IMG/VR virus record: IMGVR_UViG_3300020029_000036
Location: 1-5,950 of that record
Direction: 5' to 3' (one strand)
From: a virus
DNA: 5,950 nucleotides
Shown: positions 1 through 5,950 of the stretch, in pieces
How the letters are laid out: every line of letters begins with the position of its first letter
Numbering within the stretch: the first letter of the stretch is position 1
Notes under the pieces: model-generated
The model's input: the letters and a program-made list of their open reading frames with translations, nothing else
Databases searched by the model: none
What the model was told of the DNA's origin: nothing
Position numbers and translations under genes: made by a program

Positions 1-121
1 GCACCGGAAGAAGCAGCCGACTGACCAAGAGCCTGACCAAAAGAGGCGGGAGCGACAACAGGAGCAGGCATACTAAATGTTCGTTAAATTGTTAGAACGA
101 ATAATATAATCAACACGAACA
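1..121. repeat. Terminal redundancy, left copy. Exact duplicate of 5830..5950, created by linearising a circular 5829-nt genome. Contains the first 71 nt (minus strand, ATG at 71..69) of the VP2 gene and the 3' end of the 100-aa ORF.
   Basis: Base-by-base comparison: 1..121 (gcaccggaagaagcagccgactgacc...caacacgaaca) matches 5830..5950, offset 5829. Confidence 0.97.
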
Positions 122-375
122 GTATCGATGTGAACACCACTGCGCTGCATCCTAGCCTGAGCCGAACAAGACGCAAGAAAAAACGCAGATAAAGCGGCTA
201 TTATAGATGAAATAAGAGTCCAAAATGCTTTAGACTTATAGAAAGGTTGTTTAGTAGCAGACATAAAAGTAAAATTTAAAGAACGATAGAAAAATGCGCG
301 GCCTCTCCAGCAGTCGTTACCAATAACCTTCAGCAATTCACGAACTCTTACCGAAGGGGTCCGCGCACGTAGCAT
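73..375 (-). CDS. Small membrane protein, 100 aa. Arg-rich N-terminal 37 aa, one hydrophobic helix (about aa 50-68) ending in a lipobox-like L-A-S-C (aa 67-70, nt 166..177), and a 30-aa C-terminal tail. An alternative start at M38 (ATG 264..262) would give a 63-aa lipoprotein precursor. Function unknown; candidate lysis or exclusion protein.
   Basis: Open frame on the coding strand. It sits 22 nt after the upstream ORF stop, and its stop is 1 nt before the VP2 ATG (TAGTATG). Hydrophobic stretch AFWTLISSIIAALSAFFLA followed by C. CTT GCG TCT TGT verified at 177..166. Confidence 0.55.
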   Translation of the reverse strand: MLRARTPSVRVRELLKVIGNDCWRGRAFFYRSLNFTFMSATKQPFYKSKAFWTLISSIIAALSAFFLASCSAQARMQRSGVHIDTVRVDYIIRSNNLTNI

Positions 376-397
376 ATATCGTCAAGTAAAGTTAGTA

Positions 398-706: not shown

Positions 707-2497
707 TTAGCGGTTAGACAAACGGGTAGCAAATGTTTTATTTACCAAATTCTTCTTCTGAATAGAATACGAAAGATTGACGAAGAAATTGTCTTCTCTC
801 TTAGAGGCGAACGGCGAGTTCACTTGATCCATATCCACAAACAAGAGACTGTAGTACTTATTGTAGCTCGCCGACAAAACACGCTGTTGAACCCAATAAG
901 AATAAAGGGGTACGGTGGTAGCAGAGACTTGGAATCGAGACAGCTGACCAAGAACCTCATCGTAAGAGGATCGAAATTCGTTAAAACACGGTTCGTAAGC
1001 CACGGCTTCCGAGGCTGAAGTTGTTCCAAAACCAAACTGAAATCCAGGAACGTCCTGATATCCAATGTCGTTATAGATCGGATTGAAATAGTCGGGACCA
1101 GTGTAATGAAGATAATCGGGATAAACACCAGCCCAATAGTAAACAGGACGAATGCTCAGCATGTCGATCATATAACCAGGTTCACGGAAATAGTAGGATT
1201 GACGACGACCGAGGCGCTCATTAAAGGCTATAGCGCCGCCTTGCTGGCCAAGAGGTCCGTTACTAGGAGAAGGGGAGAAATTGTTTTGTCCCGACTGACT
1301 CATAACAATCTGTACATTGACGGTCTGGGAGGCACTAAAGAGAAGCTTCGGGCGATCAACGTGCTCAATCTTAGAAGCAAAAAACGTCTCTAACCAATCA
1401 CTATAACGACTACCGCCAGCGCCAAGCAAATCCTTGTATTCCTGAAGTCGAGAAGCAATGGCCAGCTGCGGTATGGTAGAAACGCCAGACATAGAAACAC
1501 CATCAGAGCTACCAACAGGAAGCAGGCGGCTATAACGATCAGGATTCGAAGGCACGACGGCCATCGGGTGAGAAATAAGAAATGCTCCGAGCGTAGTGAC
1601 GGTTGTGGTACCAGCATCAACAGCGTATTGATCCGATGGACCTGCGGTGGTCAATGAGGTGCTACCGGGATAGATAGTAGAGACGGGGTAACCATTCTTA
1701 GAAGCAGTAATCGTGGCACCGAGATCCGAAAGAACTATCTGAGAGAAAAGATTTCCTCTATTATACGTATTATTCGAAGACGGCACGGCCGAAGGATAAA
1801 ACTGACTCTCGAAGTAGGCATCCAGGAACTCGAGGTTGCCAAACCTTTGCGAAAAGAACGTCGACTCGTCTCCAAACTGAAGAACATTATACGCAGAACC
1901 AGCACTATTGGGAATAAAATACCAAGTACTGGGCCAAGCAAAAGAGTAGAGACCCCACTGGGAGTAACTGTAGTAATTGCGAACGATATCCCAATAGGCG
2001 AGATAAGTGTCGGCGGTACACCAACCTAAAGGATACGTCAACTGAGCGGCCGAGAGATTCGGCGACATGGGGACATTACTGGAGGTTGGCGTCGGGATAG
2101 AAGCAGGAATGATGCGCAACCAACGAAGAAGTGAATTGGAATAGGGATAGTTATTGGTGGTATACGCATAAGACCCGGTCGACGAGGCGGCAACAAAGTT
2201 TAAACTCAATTCATTCATATCGAACTTACTGCTATTCGTCCTCATCTCGGGATGATAAAGCTGCAACGGCACCCAAAAACGATGAAGCCGAACAGTGTAG
2301 GGGTTGAATGTCGGAACGGCAAGGGGATTGCTACGAACGTCAATACCCTGCTCGATAGACACACGATCGCGAGCATTAATAAAATCAATCCGCACCGGAT
2401 ACAAAATACCCGGTGTGCACGTAAAAGCTTTGCTCTCAGGAACATCGTAACGAGAGTAGCCGTTCACGGCGTGAGAAATAAAAGGTTGTTTTCCCAT
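707..2497 (-). CDS. VP1: Microviridae major capsid protein (VP1 / F-like), 596 aa.
   Basis: The N-terminal pattern YDVPESKAFTCTPGILYPVRIDFINARDRV...VRSNPLAVPTF...VRLHRFWVPLQLY matches the F-protein N-terminal signature (FD.S....T...G.L.P......PGD...R..P...P......FFVP.R). LAYWDIVRNYY and RLQEYKDLLGAGGSRYSDWLETFFASKIEHVDRPKLL match conserved capsid blocks. Size is typical of non-phiX microviruses. Confidence 0.95.
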   Translation of the reverse strand: MGKQPFISHAVNGYSRYDVPESKAFTCTPGILYPVRIDFINARDRVSIEQGIDVRSNPLAVPTFNPYTVRLHRFWVPLQLYHPEMRTNSSKFDMNELSLNFVAASSTGSYAYTTNNYPYSNSLLRWLRIIPASIPTPTSSNVPMSPNLSAAQLTYPLGWCTADTYLAYWDIVRNYYSYSQWGLYSFAWPSTWYFIPNSAGSAYNVLQFGDESTFFSQRFGNLEFLDAYFESQFYPSAVPSSNNTYNRGNLFSQIVLSDLGATITASKNGYPVSTIYPGSTSLTTAGPSDQYAVDAGTTTVTTLGAFLISHPMAVVPSNPDRYSRLLPVGSSDGVSMSGVSTIPQLAIASRLQEYKDLLGAGGSRYSDWLETFFASKIEHVDRPKLLFSASQTVNVQIVMSQSGQNNFSPSPSNGPLGQQGGAIAFNERLGRRQSYYFREPGYMIDMLSIRPVYYWAGVYPDYLHYTGPDYFNPIYNDIGYQDVPGFQFGFGTTSASEAVAYEPCFNEFRSSYDEVLGQLSRFQVSATTVPLYSYWVQQRVLSASYNKYYSLLFVDMDQVNSPFASKREDNFFVNLSYSIQKKNLVNKTFATRLSNR

Positions 2498-2500
2498 AAA

Positions 2501-3571
2501 TTAAATAATTAGTTGAAGTTTATAATGATCACTCCAAAACTGGAGAATGTCCATATCCAGCCAAGCAGGGGGATCGAAATCGGGCATCTTACGAGAGGAA
2601 GCAGAGAAGCGCATCATTTGCTTTTGCTCCCACGAATATACCGCTCTACGGGATACGGCGGAATCGAGGGAGAACCGCTTAACACACAGAGAAGCAATAC
2701 GTTGAACCAAAGAAGACTTGCTAAAACGTGCGTAAGCATCAGCAGCGGCAACCGAACGAGTAACTTCGTCTTCCGGTTTAAGATATCTAAGATAGTAGCG
2801 AGGGATCGAGTAGTTATAGCTAATCCGCCTTTCAGGATCAAAGTAAGACCACGACGAAACGCGAGCAGAAGGACGAGGCATGTAGCCAAGAAAATCACCA
2901 ACGCCAGCAGATACGAATTTTCGCGTATAACGGCGATGTTGGAGGAGGCAAGATAAAGGTGTAGGATTTCCATTTACGGTAACATATTTATCCGAAATTT
3001 CTTCGGGATTGAACTGAATTTGCTTAGTAACATATTTAACACAGTACCGAGCGCGCTTGTGGGTGGCCTTCGCTAGCCAAACAAAGCCAAGATCTCGAAC
3101 AGCGGAGCGAATAGTATTATAAAGAGTATTCGTAGAAAACAGGAAACCATGAAAATGTAATCGAGGTTCACTTCCCGTCTCAGGGTGAGTACCAAACTCC
3201 TGAAAGAAGGCGTGCTTAAACGAATGACCGAGCTTATGGCGCAAACGCTCGTTGAATCGACGAATGAACCGAGAAGGATCGAGTAACGCTTCGTTATAAT
3301 ACTGCGGAGCAATAGTTATAGTGATAAAAATAGCCTGCTGGCCATTAGCCTTACAACTGGCTAGCTCCCGCTCTAAGCGAACAAACCAATCATTGCGCTG
3401 GCGGCGCAGACAGTCCTCGCATTTACCGCACGGAACCATAAGCCATTGACGAGCGATGTCCCAAGGGCGGAGAGCTAAGGCCGACTTAGCAACATCGGAA
3501 CCATCTCGGCAAGGGTTCTTTTTGTCGAAATAGCGACGATTACGTATCCATATGGGAGATGAGCAGGCCAT
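2501..3571 (-). CDS. VP4: Rolling-circle replication initiator, HUH endonuclease (VP4 / A-like), 356 aa.
   Basis: Motif I-like FITITIAP (aa 82-89). HUH motif H139-F-H141 (CAT TTT CAT verified at 3157..3149). Catalytic tyrosine pair Y176-C-V-K-Y180-V-T-K (TAC TGT GTT AAA TAT verified at 3046..3032), as in phiX174 A (YVAKYVNK). N-terminal PCGKCEDCLRRQRNDW Cys cluster typical of gokusho-like VP4. Confidence 0.93.
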   Translation of the reverse strand: MACSSPIWIRNRRYFDKKNPCRDGSDVAKSALALRPWDIARQWLMVPCGKCEDCLRRQRNDWFVRLERELASCKANGQQAIFITITIAPQYYNEALLDPSRFIRRFNERLRHKLGHSFKHAFFQEFGTHPETGSEPRLHFHGFLFSTNTLYNTIRSAVRDLGFVWLAKATHKRARYCVKYVTKQIQFNPEEISDKYVTVNGNPTPLSCLLQHRRYTRKFVSAGVGDFLGYMPRPSARVSSWSYFDPERRISYNYSIPRYYLRYLKPEDEVTRSVAAADAYARFSKSSLVQRIASLCVKRFSLDSAVSRRAVYSWEQKQMMRFSASSRKMPDFDPPAWLDMDILQFWSDHYKLQLII

Positions 3572-3771
3572 TAGAAAAAGCTTCGTAGGATATCAAATTT
3601 GATACTAGGATGATCAAGACGGCAGCGAATAAGATAATCATTTGCAGGCTCTTCATCGGAGAACCAAGCAATAATAACGCGCTTCTTACCGCGATACGCC
3701 GCAACAGAGAAACGGTAGGAAATATTGTTAATTACAGGGGAAAAACGAGGGCGAAAATCAAAATAATCCAT
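3571..3771 (-). CDS. Hypothetical protein, 66 aa. Its stop overlaps the VP4 start by 1 nt (TAATG).
   Basis: Coding-strand ORF beginning directly after the structured intergenic region. The TAATG junction with VP4 suggests translational coupling. Confidence 0.6.
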   Translation of the reverse strand: MDYFDFRPRFSPVINNISYRFSVAAYRGKKRVIIAWFSDEEPANDYLIRCRLDHPSIKFDILRSFF

Positions 3772-3785
3772 AAAAAAAGTATATA

Positions 3786-3863
3786 CGGGTTAAATGGAAG
3801 AACCCGCAGGGGGGTACCTTACCGCTTCGCGGTGGCCACAGCCTTCGGCTGTCCCCTGGGGTT
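3786..3863. other. GC-rich nested stem-loop element in the 137-nt intergenic region 3772..3908. Hairpin 1: 3786..3791 pairs with 3801..3806, with a 9-nt loop. An outer stem (3807..3812 with 3853..3858) encloses hairpin 2 (3821..3825 with 3829..3833) and hairpin 3 (3838..3843 with 3847..3852). Candidate complementary-strand origin and/or transcription terminator.
   Basis: Complementarity checked base by base. The region is visibly more GC-rich than the rest of the genome and lies in the largest non-coding gap. Confidence 0.6.
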
Positions 3864-3908
3864 CGATTAATTTAAAGAACTTTTCCACCAAGCGGACGGG
3901 TTACTACT

Positions 3909-4232
3909 CTAGTTCCCTTTCCTTTCTTCTTCCGACGGGCTTTCATTGCGATCGATATTAAAATCAAACATAAGAACAAGTGTGTTGTCGAAAAACTCAA
4001 CCGAGAACTTCGGGTAAGAAGCCAGGGTCGCCACGAAGCCGGCGACTGACTGGTGCTTGACGTAGGGTGATTTCGAAATATCCGAAGTCAAGAAATAATC
4101 AAAAACAGGAGTGTCCGAAAGAATATCAAGAGGCAGCTGCGAAAACTGGCCATCCTTAATACAGCCGACCTGGACGAGGTCAATGTCAAGAGCCGGATTT
4201 ACACGGCGAAGAACAACATGAATCTGTGTCAT
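3909..4232 (-). CDS. Hypothetical protein, 107 aa, with an acidic C-terminal tail (ESPSEEERKGN).
   Basis: Coding-strand ORF starting 11 nt after the upstream ORF stop. No recognisable motif. Confidence 0.65.
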   Translation of the reverse strand: MTQIHVVLRRVNPALDIDLVQVGCIKDGQFSQLPLDILSDTPVFDYFLTSDISKSPYVKHQSVAGFVATLASYPKFSVEFFDNTLVLMFDFNIDRNESPSEEERKGN

Positions 4233-4561: not shown

Positions 4562-4586
4562 AATAATGTGGTTATTGGTTACGATG

Positions 4587-4617
4587 CAAACGTACAACGC
4601 AGGGCCCAAAATGCAAA
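4587..4617 (-). promoter_or_regulatory. Candidate Bacteroidetes-type promoter. On the minus strand, TTTG (4617..4614), a 19-nt spacer, then TACGTTTG (4594..4587), about 25 nt upstream of the ATG at 4561.
   Basis: The plus strand reads caaacgta-N19-caaa. Among the TAnnTTTG matches I found by eye, this is the only one in a non-coding gap and the only one with a correctly spaced -33 TTTG. Confidence 0.4.
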
Positions 4618-4640
4618 GTTCAAAAAGTCGAAAAAGTTGT

Positions 4641-5900
4641 CTAATTTCGCCTAAACATACTGCGACGAGTATGTGTGGCGCCAATCTGATCACCGTCAGG
4701 ACCGTAAAACTCTTTCATTTCATCATAACCTTCCGGGCCGGCGGGGCCTGCCGCCTTACGGCCAACATAGGAGGCGCCGGCGATACCTGCAGCAGTAGCG
4801 AAAGATCGAAGAATGTCATAACCAAGGCGGTTTTTCGAATTCCGCAAATCCCAACGAACATTGCCAGTTTCAAGTTGAGCAGTTTCAGCAGCAGAAGCCT
4901 TTAGAATAGCCAAAGTTTCGGCCACTTTCATTACCCTCGTCTCAACAACTTCGCCTTTATCATTGCGAATCTGTACGGGAACTTCCTTTTCCCAGTTCAG
5001 CTCGTACCACTTCTGCAAATCCTTGAGTTGCTGAGCGTTAAGTTCAATACGAGACTCTGATTCAGCGGCTGCCGAAAGGTGAGCAAGAGCAGAACTCCAG
5101 GCGACAGCAAGTGACGCGCCGGCTTCGGGTTCGAACCAATCATTGGTTTTGCGAAGGTTTAGATACTTCTCTTCTAGAATACCGGCCATAGCCATAATGG
5201 AAGACAACTTATAACCTTGCGTAATGTTGGCTAGATAAGCGTCGATCGCCACAATTTGCGCCTGCGCCTCGCGAAGATTGGCAAGCTCACGAGCGTCCTT
5301 AACATTGTGCTCGGCAATCTGCAACTCAAGTCGATCCATTTGCTCTCGCCAGTCTTGAGTGTGAGTATTACCTCGAAGATTATCAGCTTCTGCCTCATCT
5401 CGATCAGCGGCGGCAGTATTACGATCAACCGTAGATTGTGCAACCATATTTTGCGCGATAGCAGAAGGGTCGCCCGGAGCGAAGCCACCGGGAGCGATCG
5501 GGGAGCCGCCCGAAGGTCCAGAAGCAGCGGGCGTAGACGCGGAACCACCTGACATAGTAGCGTTTACACCAACACCAGAAGAACCTAAAACAGCAGCAGG
5601 AGTTACGCCAGCCTTCAAATAACGATCGAAAACCTTTGTAGGGTCATTGTAGGCATTCTCATAATCGAACTGTTTTTGCCAGTTAGAATAGGAAAGTTCA
5701 GATTGTTTTTGCATCTGCTCTAAAGCGTACCTCTGCTGAAGAGCCATTTGTTTTTGCTGAAATTTCCATTGCCGGCGGGCGTTCATACCTCCGAAAAGCT
5801 GACCGAGGGCGCCGGAGATCAAACCCGTAGCACCGGAAGAAGCAGCCGACTGACCAAGAGCCTGACCAAAAGAGGCGGGAGCGACAACAGGAGCAGGCAT
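4641..5900 (-). CDS. VP2: Minor capsid / DNA pilot protein (VP2 / H-like), 419 aa.
   Basis: Gly/Ala/Ser-rich N-terminus and a Q-rich segment. YENAYNDPTKVFDRYLKAGVTPAAVLG resembles the conserved VP2 block (N.AY......lk.AG.NP). Long central region rich in charged residues, Ala and Leu that looks predicted-helical or coiled-coil. Size and position relative to VP1 and VP4 fit. Confidence 0.85.
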   Translation of the reverse strand: MPAPVVAPASFGQALGQSAASSGATGLISGALGQLFGGMNARRQWKFQQKQMALQQRYALEQMQKQSELSYSNWQKQFDYENAYNDPTKVFDRYLKAGVTPAAVLGSSGVGVNATMSGGSASTPAASGPSGGSPIAPGGFAPGDPSAIAQNMVAQSTVDRNTAAADRDEAEADNLRGNTHTQDWREQMDRLELQIAEHNVKDARELANLREAQAQIVAIDAYLANITQGYKLSSIMAMAGILEEKYLNLRKTNDWFEPEAGASLAVAWSSALAHLSAAAESESRIELNAQQLKDLQKWYELNWEKEVPVQIRNDKGEVVETRVMKVAETLAILKASAAETAQLETGNVRWDLRNSKNRLGYDILRSFATAAGIAGASYVGRKAAGPAGPEGYDEMKEFYGPDGDQIGATHTRRSMFRRN

Positions 5901-5950
5901 ACTAAATGTTCGTTAAATTGTTAGAACGAATAATATAATCAACACGAACA
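5830..5950. repeat. Terminal redundancy, right copy (identical to 1..121).
   Basis: Exact 121-nt identity with the window start. Confidence 0.97.

Follow-up and report, generated by a model that had tools for sequence, protein, structure and literature searches.

A conserved three-way-junction element behind a J-like gene in uncultivated microviruses: a candidate terminator hairpin with an accessory single-stranded DNA signal

Introduction

To our knowledge, how second-strand DNA synthesis starts is unknown for the thousands of uncultivated gut microviruses, and experiments have been done almost only with phiX174 and G4 in E. coli. The microvirus genome analysed here carries a GC-rich cluster of hairpins (3786-3863) between two of its genes, and this raises the question of whether the cluster is a start signal for the complementary strand, a transcription terminator, or something else. 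The original prediction proposed either of the first two roles. Here we assess the fold of the cluster, its conservation in relatives and its distribution among genomes, and weigh what these say about its function.

Results

Genome layout and the intergenic gap

The window, meaning the whole stretch of 5,950 nt that was analysed, covers a circular microvirus genome of 5,829 nt with a terminal redundancy, positions 1-121 being identical to 5830-5950. All genes in the ORF list lie on the minus strand of the window. Because Microviridae package the mRNA-sense strand, the minus strand is both the virion strand and the transcript sense. The assignments of VP1, VP4 and VP2 (Table 1) were backed by Pfam and PHROG matches, and further minus-strand ORFs of 105, 107 and 98 aa were found together with a small ORF beside VP2. 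Judged by eye, the genes lack Shine-Dalgarno sequences. Upstream of the 66-aa ORF there is a conserved CGTATATAC motif, a possible promoter box of the -10 type.

The hairpins had been placed in a 137-nt gap, said to be the largest in an otherwise packed genome, and neither statement held. The first 37 nt of this gap are coding and belong to a 24-codon ORF, leaving a gap of 100 nt (3772-3871). Minor-allele counts for this ORF by codon position were 52/49/344 among 65 distinct relatives, with the third position dominating. The ORF overlaps the end of the 107-aa ORF and encodes a small basic protein; a PHROG search with the 24-aa product gave no match, and the product is called J-like by analogy only. 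As to size, the non-coding stretch at 265-397 (133 nt) is larger, and a second stretch at 4562-4640 (79 nt) is also free of any assigned gene. As a larger non-coding stretch exists, the positional argument for an origin in the largest gap of a packed genome fails. The J-like stop and the 66-aa ORF lay 61 to 228 nt apart in 68 distinct relatives, and a GC-rich hairpin always opened this gap. L122 and L123, which are relatives of the genomes described below that carry the core at a second position, have zero gap between the two ORFs.

The stretch at 265-397 was annotated as the start of a "100-aa ORF" (73-375). The first 37 codons of this ORF showed no codon periodicity (266/286/264) and contained in-frame stops in 23 of 89 relatives, and we therefore take 265-397 to be non-coding and the largest stretch of its kind. 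It holds a 31-mer, CTTTACTTGACGATATATGCTACGTGCGCGG, which hardly varies even between genomes that share only 65-70% identity overall. This is followed by a covarying fold of roughly 100 nt, closed by GCGCGG..CCGCGC, and a T-run. The structured element was present in 48 GenBank relatives, runs through the whole family and is far better conserved than the two-hairpin core of the cluster described below. The ACTTGAcgATAT part of the 31-mer resembles the phiX174 origin core ACTTG^ATAT, and region 265-397 is a stronger candidate for an essential origin than the two-hairpin core. Annotation of this genome family has thus been corrected twice, once for a missed 24-aa J-like gene and once for a spurious 5' gene extension that masked a conserved non-coding element.

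Fold of the element

The individual stems listed in the original prediction at 3786-3863 are present in the bases exactly as claimed, as is the TATATAC followed by seven T residues on the coding strand after the last hairpin and before the ATG at 3771. The fold of the 137-nt stretch was moderately more stable than those of its dinucleotide shuffles (z = -2.5 to -2.7). For the 65-nt core (3800-3864) z was -4.6 and none of 200 shuffles was as stable, using DNA parameters on both strands and RNA parameters on the minus strand. The minus-strand RNA fold had an energy of -38 kcal/mol (z about -4.5). Every predicted minimum-energy fold paired GAACCC-CAGGGG (3864-3853) with CCCCTG-C-GGGTTC (3812-3800) to form a 12-bp closing stem with two small hairpins, A and B, inside it, giving a three-way junction. 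Nine of the 12 closing pairs are G-C, and the stem starts 7 nt past the stop codon of the J-like ORF. Its one-base bulge is kept in relatives while the position of the bulge slides (6+6, 7+5 and 8+4 registers). The sequence enclosed by the closing stem reads GG-ACAGCC-GAA-GGCTGT-GG-CC-ACCGC-GAA-GCGGT-AAGGTACC.

The first hairpin of the original prediction, proposed as a separate structure beside the others, is better described as an alternative conformer. It competes with the 12-bp stem for bases 3801-3805, which pair with 3859-3863 in the long stem. Across relatives 84% of its cells were paired as compared to 96% for the long stem, and it showed mismatches and one-sided changes only. DNA parameters placed the two conformers 1-3 kcal/mol apart, and RNA parameters favoured the long stem by 5-8 kcal/mol.

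Known structured RNAs were also searched for. Rfam 15 covariance models run over the whole window at E <= 10 gave no matches, and a tRNA/tmRNA scan with ARAGORN gave no calls. By reading the sequence, a hammerhead-like core was rejected, as the junction strands (0 nt, GG and TACC) do not match CUGANGA/GAAA. An extension of hairpin B by a CC/GG helix was rejected on covariation, with 8 and 5 of 22 cells unpaired.

Table 1. Positions of the genes and of the parts of the three-way-junction element in the window
Feature	Position	Strand	Basis
VP2 pilot protein	4641-5900	-	
VP4 replication initiator	2501-3571	-	
VP1 capsid	707-2497	-	
66-aa ORF, overlaps VP4 start, downstream of the element	3571..3771	-	ORF list; protein kept in all relatives
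Conserved CGTATATAC motif, upstream of 66-aa ORF	3779..3787	-	CCGTATAATAC or CCGGTATAT in other intergenic variants and distant relatives
Small basic J-like ORF, 24 aa, MKARRKKKGKGTRVVTRPLGGKVL; stop codon directly before the gap	3872..3946	-	Codon-position variation
Three-way-junction (Y) element: closing stem, hairpin A and hairpin B	3800..3864	-	Minimum-energy fold, covariation
Closing stem, 5' arm, GAACCCCAGGGG	3853..3864	-	Pairs with 3800-3805 and 3807-3812; 12/12 pairs compensatory
Closing stem, 3' arm, CCCCTG-C-GGGTTC, one-base bulge at 3806	3800..3812	-	Fold and covariation
Hairpin A, ACAGCC-GAA-GGCTGT, holds CCGAAGG heptamer	3838..3852	-	100% of cells paired; 5/6 pairs covary
Hairpin B, ACCGC-GAA-GCGGT, holds GCGAAGC heptamer	3821..3833	-	Loop rule in 17/17 distinct cores
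Near-invariant junction GTGGCCAC, 8-nt palindrome, end of hairpin A to start of hairpin B	3832..3839	.	Invariant in alignments A1 and A2
Conserved junction strand AAGGTACC, hairpin B to closing stem	3813..3820	-	GGTAAGGNAC conserved across contexts
Pyrimidine-rich tail TTCCATTT, directly 3' of closing stem	3792..3799	-	5/8 bases T
Hairpin 1 of the original prediction, alternative conformer competing with closing stem	3786..3806	-	Covariation, energies

Conservation and covariation

The element was found in 8 GenBank microviruses from pig, deer and civet faeces, seven of them at 87-90% identity and the eighth at 78%, in genomes that are overall only about 73-77% identical. Carriers also came from IMG/VR (about a dozen contigs) and from metagenomes (four contigs), and wider scans of IMG/VR and metagenomes for the core returned members of the same clade only. 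When 20 distinct carriers were aligned with MAFFT, the junction with the long stem was 96% paired and 8 pairs were changed on both sides. A covariance model was trained on close carriers and then used to recover divergent versions. These included a subclade with a wholly different closing stem (GAAGCAGGTGCGG/CCGCGCCTGCTTC) as well as versions in Tortoise microviruses, Peromfec virus RodF5_9 and a second set of relatives. The GGCCACC of the junction was kept in Tortoise microvirus 102 and in Peromfec virus RodF5_9.

In a 22-sequence alignment (A6), 95.9% of cells were paired and 18 of the 25 pairs showed compensatory changes; this alignment was fitted to the model, which somewhat inflates pairing, and the unfitted alignment agrees in direction. 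On four of five measures none of 500 shuffles reached the observed value, on the fifth (further pair types) one of 500 did, and slid controls were 33-48% paired. The covariation that the original prediction called for was therefore seen in the junction stems (18 of 25 pairs) but not in hairpin 1, which had no two-sided changes. Wobbles in the main helices were G-T seven times and A-C never, indicating that the fold is selected on the minus strand. G-U pairs were scarce, at about 1% of cells. This strand test is unable to separate a function in ssDNA from one in mRNA, as both have the same sense. Together these data show that the hairpin cluster is real and evolutionarily conserved.

The closing stem and the terminator reading

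About 57 relatives have, between the J-like and 66-aa ORFs, a plain stem of 10-15 bp with a short loop, followed by a T-run, for example GAGCCCCAGGAGA-TTCCCC-TCTCCTGCGGGTTC-TTTTTTATTC. In relative L010 this plain hairpin is the best terminator-like site of the whole genome (11 pairs, CTTTTTCTTT). The closing arms in the window, GAACCCCAGGGGA...CCCCCTGCGGGTTC, are the same sequence as the arms of the plain hairpin, conserved bulge included. The 5' arm is homologous to GAGCCCCAGGAGA, the 5' arm of the terminator hairpin of the relatives, and 40 nt stand in place of the short loop of the plain hairpin. The tail is TTCCATTT in the window and TTCCTTTT in many carriers, with CC interrupting the T residues. 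T content of the tail was 5-6 of 8 in most carriers of the window's clade (two outliers had 4 and 3) and typically 6-8 in relatives with the plain hairpin.

The element therefore has the GC-rich stem of an intrinsic terminator, on the transcribed strand and just downstream of a gene. It lacks the short apical loop of about 3-8 nt, as the loop is a 40-nt branched insert, and for this reason a scan with a simple terminator consensus did not call it. The terminator reading of the original prediction is supported by the homology of the closing stem and tail, in position and sequence, to the canonical hairpin and T-run; against it, a branched loop is atypical of intrinsic terminators and CC interrupts the tail. 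The closing stem is a terminator-type hairpin, with uncertain efficiency in its branched form.

Distribution of the two-hairpin core

Most close relatives lack the core, and 13 of these carry the plain hairpin only, with no extra module anywhere in the genome. The cassette is therefore accessory and dispensable. Within the clade, the intergenic regions fall into those with the present core, those with the plain hairpin only and those with other GC-rich hairpin modules. These types are scattered over the tree of the 66-aa protein and VP4, implying frequent exchange. One of the other modules is a second three-way junction (M3) in relatives, GGCCGA[GACGC-GNA-GCGTC][CAGCC-GTTA(A)-GGCTG]TCGGCC.

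Ten other GenBank relatives, bajarodmic, Sigmofec and Dipodfec viruses and MG945151 among others, carry the core elsewhere in the genome. At this second position it covers the 3' end of the 98-aa ORF homologue, with the TGA stop inside the junction GGTAAnTGAC and no T-run after it. Peromfec virus RodF5_9 has a different gene order and only 25% identity in VP1 and 32% in Rep, and carries the core, closed by a stem of its own, 25 nt past a strong canonical terminator. Such independence of position, with a terminator in front of the core in one case and the end of a translated ORF beneath it in another, is easier to reconcile with a cis-element of the genome than with an RNA signal tied to one gene. 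The element has the gene (virion) sense in every carrier, and by an unsystematic look none of the genomes examined has more than one copy. In these genomes, then, structured non-coding modules are traded as cassettes.

A search of 185,579 bacterial genomes gave neither copies of the core nor prophages with a relative of VP1. These results, together with the lack of AT-rich dif-like arms, led us to reject a XerCD/dif-like ssDNA attachment site.

Loop sequences of the two hairpins

The loop of hairpin B was C-GNA-G in all 17 distinct cores (GAA 13, GCA 2, GTA 1 and GGA 1). In hairpin A it was C-GNA-G in 13 of 17 and otherwise sometimes AAC, AAA or ATA, and the 17 cores had ten different hairpin A stems. 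In the second junction module one loop is GCA, GTA, GAA or GGA and the other is C-GTTA-G. When all intergenic hairpins were counted there were 61 C-GNA-G triloops, and their reverse complements were not among the common loop types listed. The viral strand of the window has GCGAAGC at 3824-3830 and CCGAAGG at 3842-3848; GNA heptamers as such are not rare across the window, the other strand included, with 19 found as compared to 11 expected. Both hairpins have the GNA triloop, the C-G closing pair and the further G-C pairs of d(C-GNA-G) minihairpins. The sequences d(GCGNAGC) and d(GCGNNAGC) form extraordinarily stable DNA minihairpins, GCGAAGC melting at 76 C, while their RNA counterparts are far weaker (PMC13037366). 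Two adjacent minihairpins bind SSB poorly (PMC13037366).

Discussion

The reading we favour, tentatively and with somewhat less than even confidence, is a composite one, in which a terminator hairpin carries a two-hairpin core that acts as an accessory ssDNA priming signal. At the RNA level the closing stem and the TTCCATTT tail would end or attenuate the VP2-105aa-107aa-J transcription unit. In packaged or injected ssDNA the twin d(GNA) minihairpins would remain folded and resist coating by SSB, leaving a fixed landmark of duplex and junction at which a host priming enzyme, either primase or RNA polymerase, would begin the complementary strand. The cassette would then be an exchangeable accessory ssi signal, analogous to a G4-type origin, to ssiA or to a plasmid sso. 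The GNA loop rule, the chemistry of the minihairpins, the position independence of the core and the few wobble pairs are why a role in ssDNA is favoured, and an accessory start signal for second-strand DNA synthesis is a plausible function for the two-hairpin cassette.

The proposal of a complementary-strand origin in the original prediction gains comparative support in that the core behaves like an ssDNA cis-element, being fixed to the viral strand, found at varied positions and provided with C-GNA-G loops. As expected of a G4-type origin, the viral strand carries a stable cluster of stem-loops in non-coding DNA, with minihairpins of the GCGNAGC/GCGNNAGC type. The proposal does not extend to a sole origin, which should be present in every member of the group; most close relatives are without the core and 13 have no module at all. 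Simple exclusion of SSB leaves both the near-invariance of the junction bases and the GTGGCCAC palindrome unaccounted for.

The strongest rival to the composite reading places all function in RNA, with the Y structure an elaborated terminator or attenuator and 3'-end stabiliser whose extra hairpins only resist 3' exonucleases. We consider this rather unlikely. It agrees with the homology of the closing stem to the canonical terminators of relatives, with the retained T-rich tail, with the position of the element just behind the final gene of what is probably an operon, and with the stability of the RNA fold (-38 kcal/mol, z about -4.5) and the clear preference of RNA parameters for the long stem. 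It does not agree with the second position of the core, where there is no T-run and the core overlies the end of a translated ORF, or with the core in Peromfec virus RodF5_9, which follows a strong terminator. Branched terminators are unusual as well, G-U pairs make up about 1% of cells, and the loops obey the DNA-specific GNA rule rather than the GNRA or UNCG rules of RNA (PMC13037366). The same conserved bases could instead form a recognition element for a protein or ligand unconnected with priming or termination, such as a regulatory RNA or DNA motif or a dsDNA operator on the GTGGCCAC palindrome. The junction bases (GG-AC, TGTGGCCACC and GGTAAGGNAC) are nearly invariant while the stems covary, a pattern typical of a specific 3D fold or binding site, and the palindrome is kept in very distant carriers. 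Such a role nevertheless seems improbable to us, as the Rfam search (E <= 10) came out empty, no partner protein stands out and the cassette does not follow the phylogeny of Rep or of the 66-aa protein; for a duplex operator in particular, covariation reflects selection for intramolecular pairing, which an operator does not need.

Mobility by itself could point to a selfish or nearly neutral palindromic cassette that spreads by recombination and has no function for the phage, and the patchy distribution, the two insertion positions, the carriage by an unrelated microvirus and the genomes without the element would all fit. Against this stand strong purifying selection on sequence and structure with compensatory changes, a single orientation, never more than one copy in the genomes examined, the tight packaging limits under which small ssDNA genomes rarely keep useless DNA, and the lack of any transposase or visible target-site duplication, and we judge a cassette of this kind to be a poor prospect. 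The idea that the element is the viral (+) strand origin, nicked by VP4, was rejected and we give it next to no credence. It lies about 200 nt upstream of VP4 and HUH endonucleases often nick in or beside hairpins, but relatives with 85-91% identical VP4 lack it and in others it sits at a different position, and the phiX174-like 31-mer in 265-397 is the better candidate.

A bolder form of the composite reading is that the core is a portable, self-contained and SSB-resistant origin cassette, recognised by the priming enzyme of a gut bacterium, that has moved by recombination from place to place within one microvirus family and into an unrelated lineage; this is possible but doubtful. If true, uncultivated, non-enterobacterial Microviridae would have their first defined complementary-strand initiation signal, and such signals would be exchanged like plasmid sso cassettes. 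If the cassette is only terminator decoration the result is an ordinary one. The 65-nt candidate is compact and synthesisable, is backed by covariation and has a DNA-specific loop signature.

The intergenic regions of phiX174 have Rho-independent terminators, such as T_J after gene J, and in the Ff phages the intergenic hairpin A is at once a terminator and an ssDNA signal. Like these, the present element has a GC hairpin, and it comes straight after a gene for a small basic J-like protein. Unlike these, its loop is a 40-nt branched insert, its U-tract is interrupted and its dual use is one that we infer. Among microviruses, intergenic hairpins near Rep with compensatory substitutions have been proposed as negative-strand initiation sites of uncertain function in reekeekee- and roodoodoo-microviruses (PMC9865509). 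Those belong to other clades and are simple hairpins, and no junction, minihairpin loops or mobility were reported for them (PMC9865509). Our literature searches found no description of the present element.

Closer in loop chemistry are the complementary-strand origins of G4 and of St-1/alpha3, which contain GCGAAAGC and GCGTTAGC (PMC13037366). As in these primase-dependent Bullavirinae, the stem-loops of the present element are clustered between genes on the viral strand and contain minihairpins of the GCGNNAGC or GCGNAGC type, which are thought to stay free of SSB (PMC13037366). The element differs in being a three-way junction within a terminator hairpin as opposed to three tandem hairpins, and in being accessory and exchangeable, and the likeness seen is one of structure and loops. 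The hairpin of RSF1010 ssiA is capped by the identical CCGAAGG minihairpin and works on ssDNA only and in one orientation (PMC13037366). Unlike ssiA, which is read by the plasmid-encoded primase RepB', the present element occurs in a genome with no primase gene, and its architecture and flanks are different.

The single-strand origins (sso) of plasmids are non-essential for viability and are swapped as cassettes between related replicons. In rolling-circle plasmids they are strand- and orientation-specific folded ssDNA elements read by host enzymes (PMC5714925). An ssoA-type origin in the strict sense was rejected for the present locus, as the CS-6 motif TAGCGW is absent from 3772-3871. In its general behaviour the two-hairpin cassette would nonetheless be much like a plasmid sso, as a strand- and orientation-specific folded ssDNA element that is accessory and cassette-like, with the difference that the replicon here is a phage.

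The junction element at its second position and hairpins near the J-like ORF

In the GenBank relatives that carry the three-way junction at a second position, the element coded for the C-terminal tail of the 98-aa protein homologue and the stop codon of this homologue fell inside the junction. Compensatory changes in the stems altered the amino acids encoded by the element, so nucleic-acid structure ranks above coding at this position. Downstream of the element a remnant of the original ORF end, GAAGAAAAATAG, was kept as non-coding sequence.

Between the J-like ORF and the 66-aa ORF, the IMG/VR relatives (L004-L080) had a gap of 61 to 228 nt that held interchangeable GC-rich hairpin modules, whose types were scattered across the Rep tree. 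Several lineages had another conserved hairpin, GxTCGCAGTnnGC-TTG-GCnnAATCGAxC, on the 3' side of the junction element, usually followed by CCGTATAATAC. The window retains only the CCCGTATATAC part of this hairpin region, which could be a -10-like promoter box.

Positions of the features in the window and in related genomes
Feature	Genome	Position	Length	Strand	Remark
Junction element, second position	L116	2991-3067			
Junction element, second position	L122	2126-2202			
Junction element, second position	eight similar GenBank records				
Non-coding structured region	window	265-397	133 nt	-	conserved family-wide
ORF MKARRKKKGKGTRVVTRPLGGKVL	window	3872-3946	24 aa	-	highly basic; unannotated; conserved
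'100-aa ORF'	window	73-375		-	5' end artefactual
Probable true gene	window	73-264	63 aa		begins MSATKQPFYKSKAFWTLISSIIAALSAFFLASC...
Hairpin 3' of junction element	L112	~835-865			
Hairpin 3' of junction element	L114	2578-2610			
Hairpin 3' of junction element	L121	4255-4285			
Hairpin 3' of junction element	L124	~5247-5276			
CCCGTATATAC part	window	3779-3789			
Gap between VP2 and 105-aa ORF	window	4562-4640	79 nt		
Gap module	L004-L080				CCGGCTTTGCCGG+TATAT
Gap module	L004-L080				second three-way junction, GNA and GTTA loops
Gap module	L004-L080				GCGCTCGAAAG..CTTTCGAAGCGC
Gap module	L004-L080				long palindromic, with GATATCGCGGACGCGAGATC
Exact terminal repeat	window	1-121 = 5830-5950	121 nt		

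Revised gene content, translation leaders and host

The ends of the window repeat exactly; its sequence is that of a 5,829-nt circular genome and was read on past the start of that genome. The J-like ORF at 3872-3946, which was also without annotation in GenBank relatives, and the end of the 107-aa ORF overlap in different frames. The J-like ORF was strongly conserved with variation at third positions, and within the overlap the constraint was tighter on its frame. By analogy it probably encodes a J-like protein for DNA binding or packaging. Codon periodicity was absent from the first 37 codons of the '100-aa ORF', in-frame stops occurred within these codons in 23 of 89 relatives, and the 5' end of this ORF is an artefact. 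The product of the probable true gene has a lipobox-like LASC as well as a stretch resembling a signal peptide, so this gene may encode a lysis protein or a lipoprotein.

No Shine-Dalgarno-like sequence was visible by eye upstream of the window genes looked at and the leaders of the 66-aa ORF, VP1 and VP2 were AT-rich, which may indicate that the host, e.g. one of the Bacteroidota, does not depend on Shine-Dalgarno pairing. A VP1 search found no prophage relatives among 185,579 genomes. The gap between VP2 and the 105-aa ORF, where no strong predicted structure was seen by eye, could be a promoter site.

A conserved structured region

The non-coding structured region contains a near-invariant 31-mer, CTTTACTTGACGATATATGCTACGTGCGCGG, followed by a covarying fold with the closing stem GCGCGGaCC../..GGcCGCGC and a T-run. 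The element was found in 48 GenBank relatives, for the most part without annotation, and Rfam gave no match to it. We consider this region a candidate essential origin or small RNA because it includes ACTTGAcgATAT, which is similar to the core of the phiX174 (+) origin.
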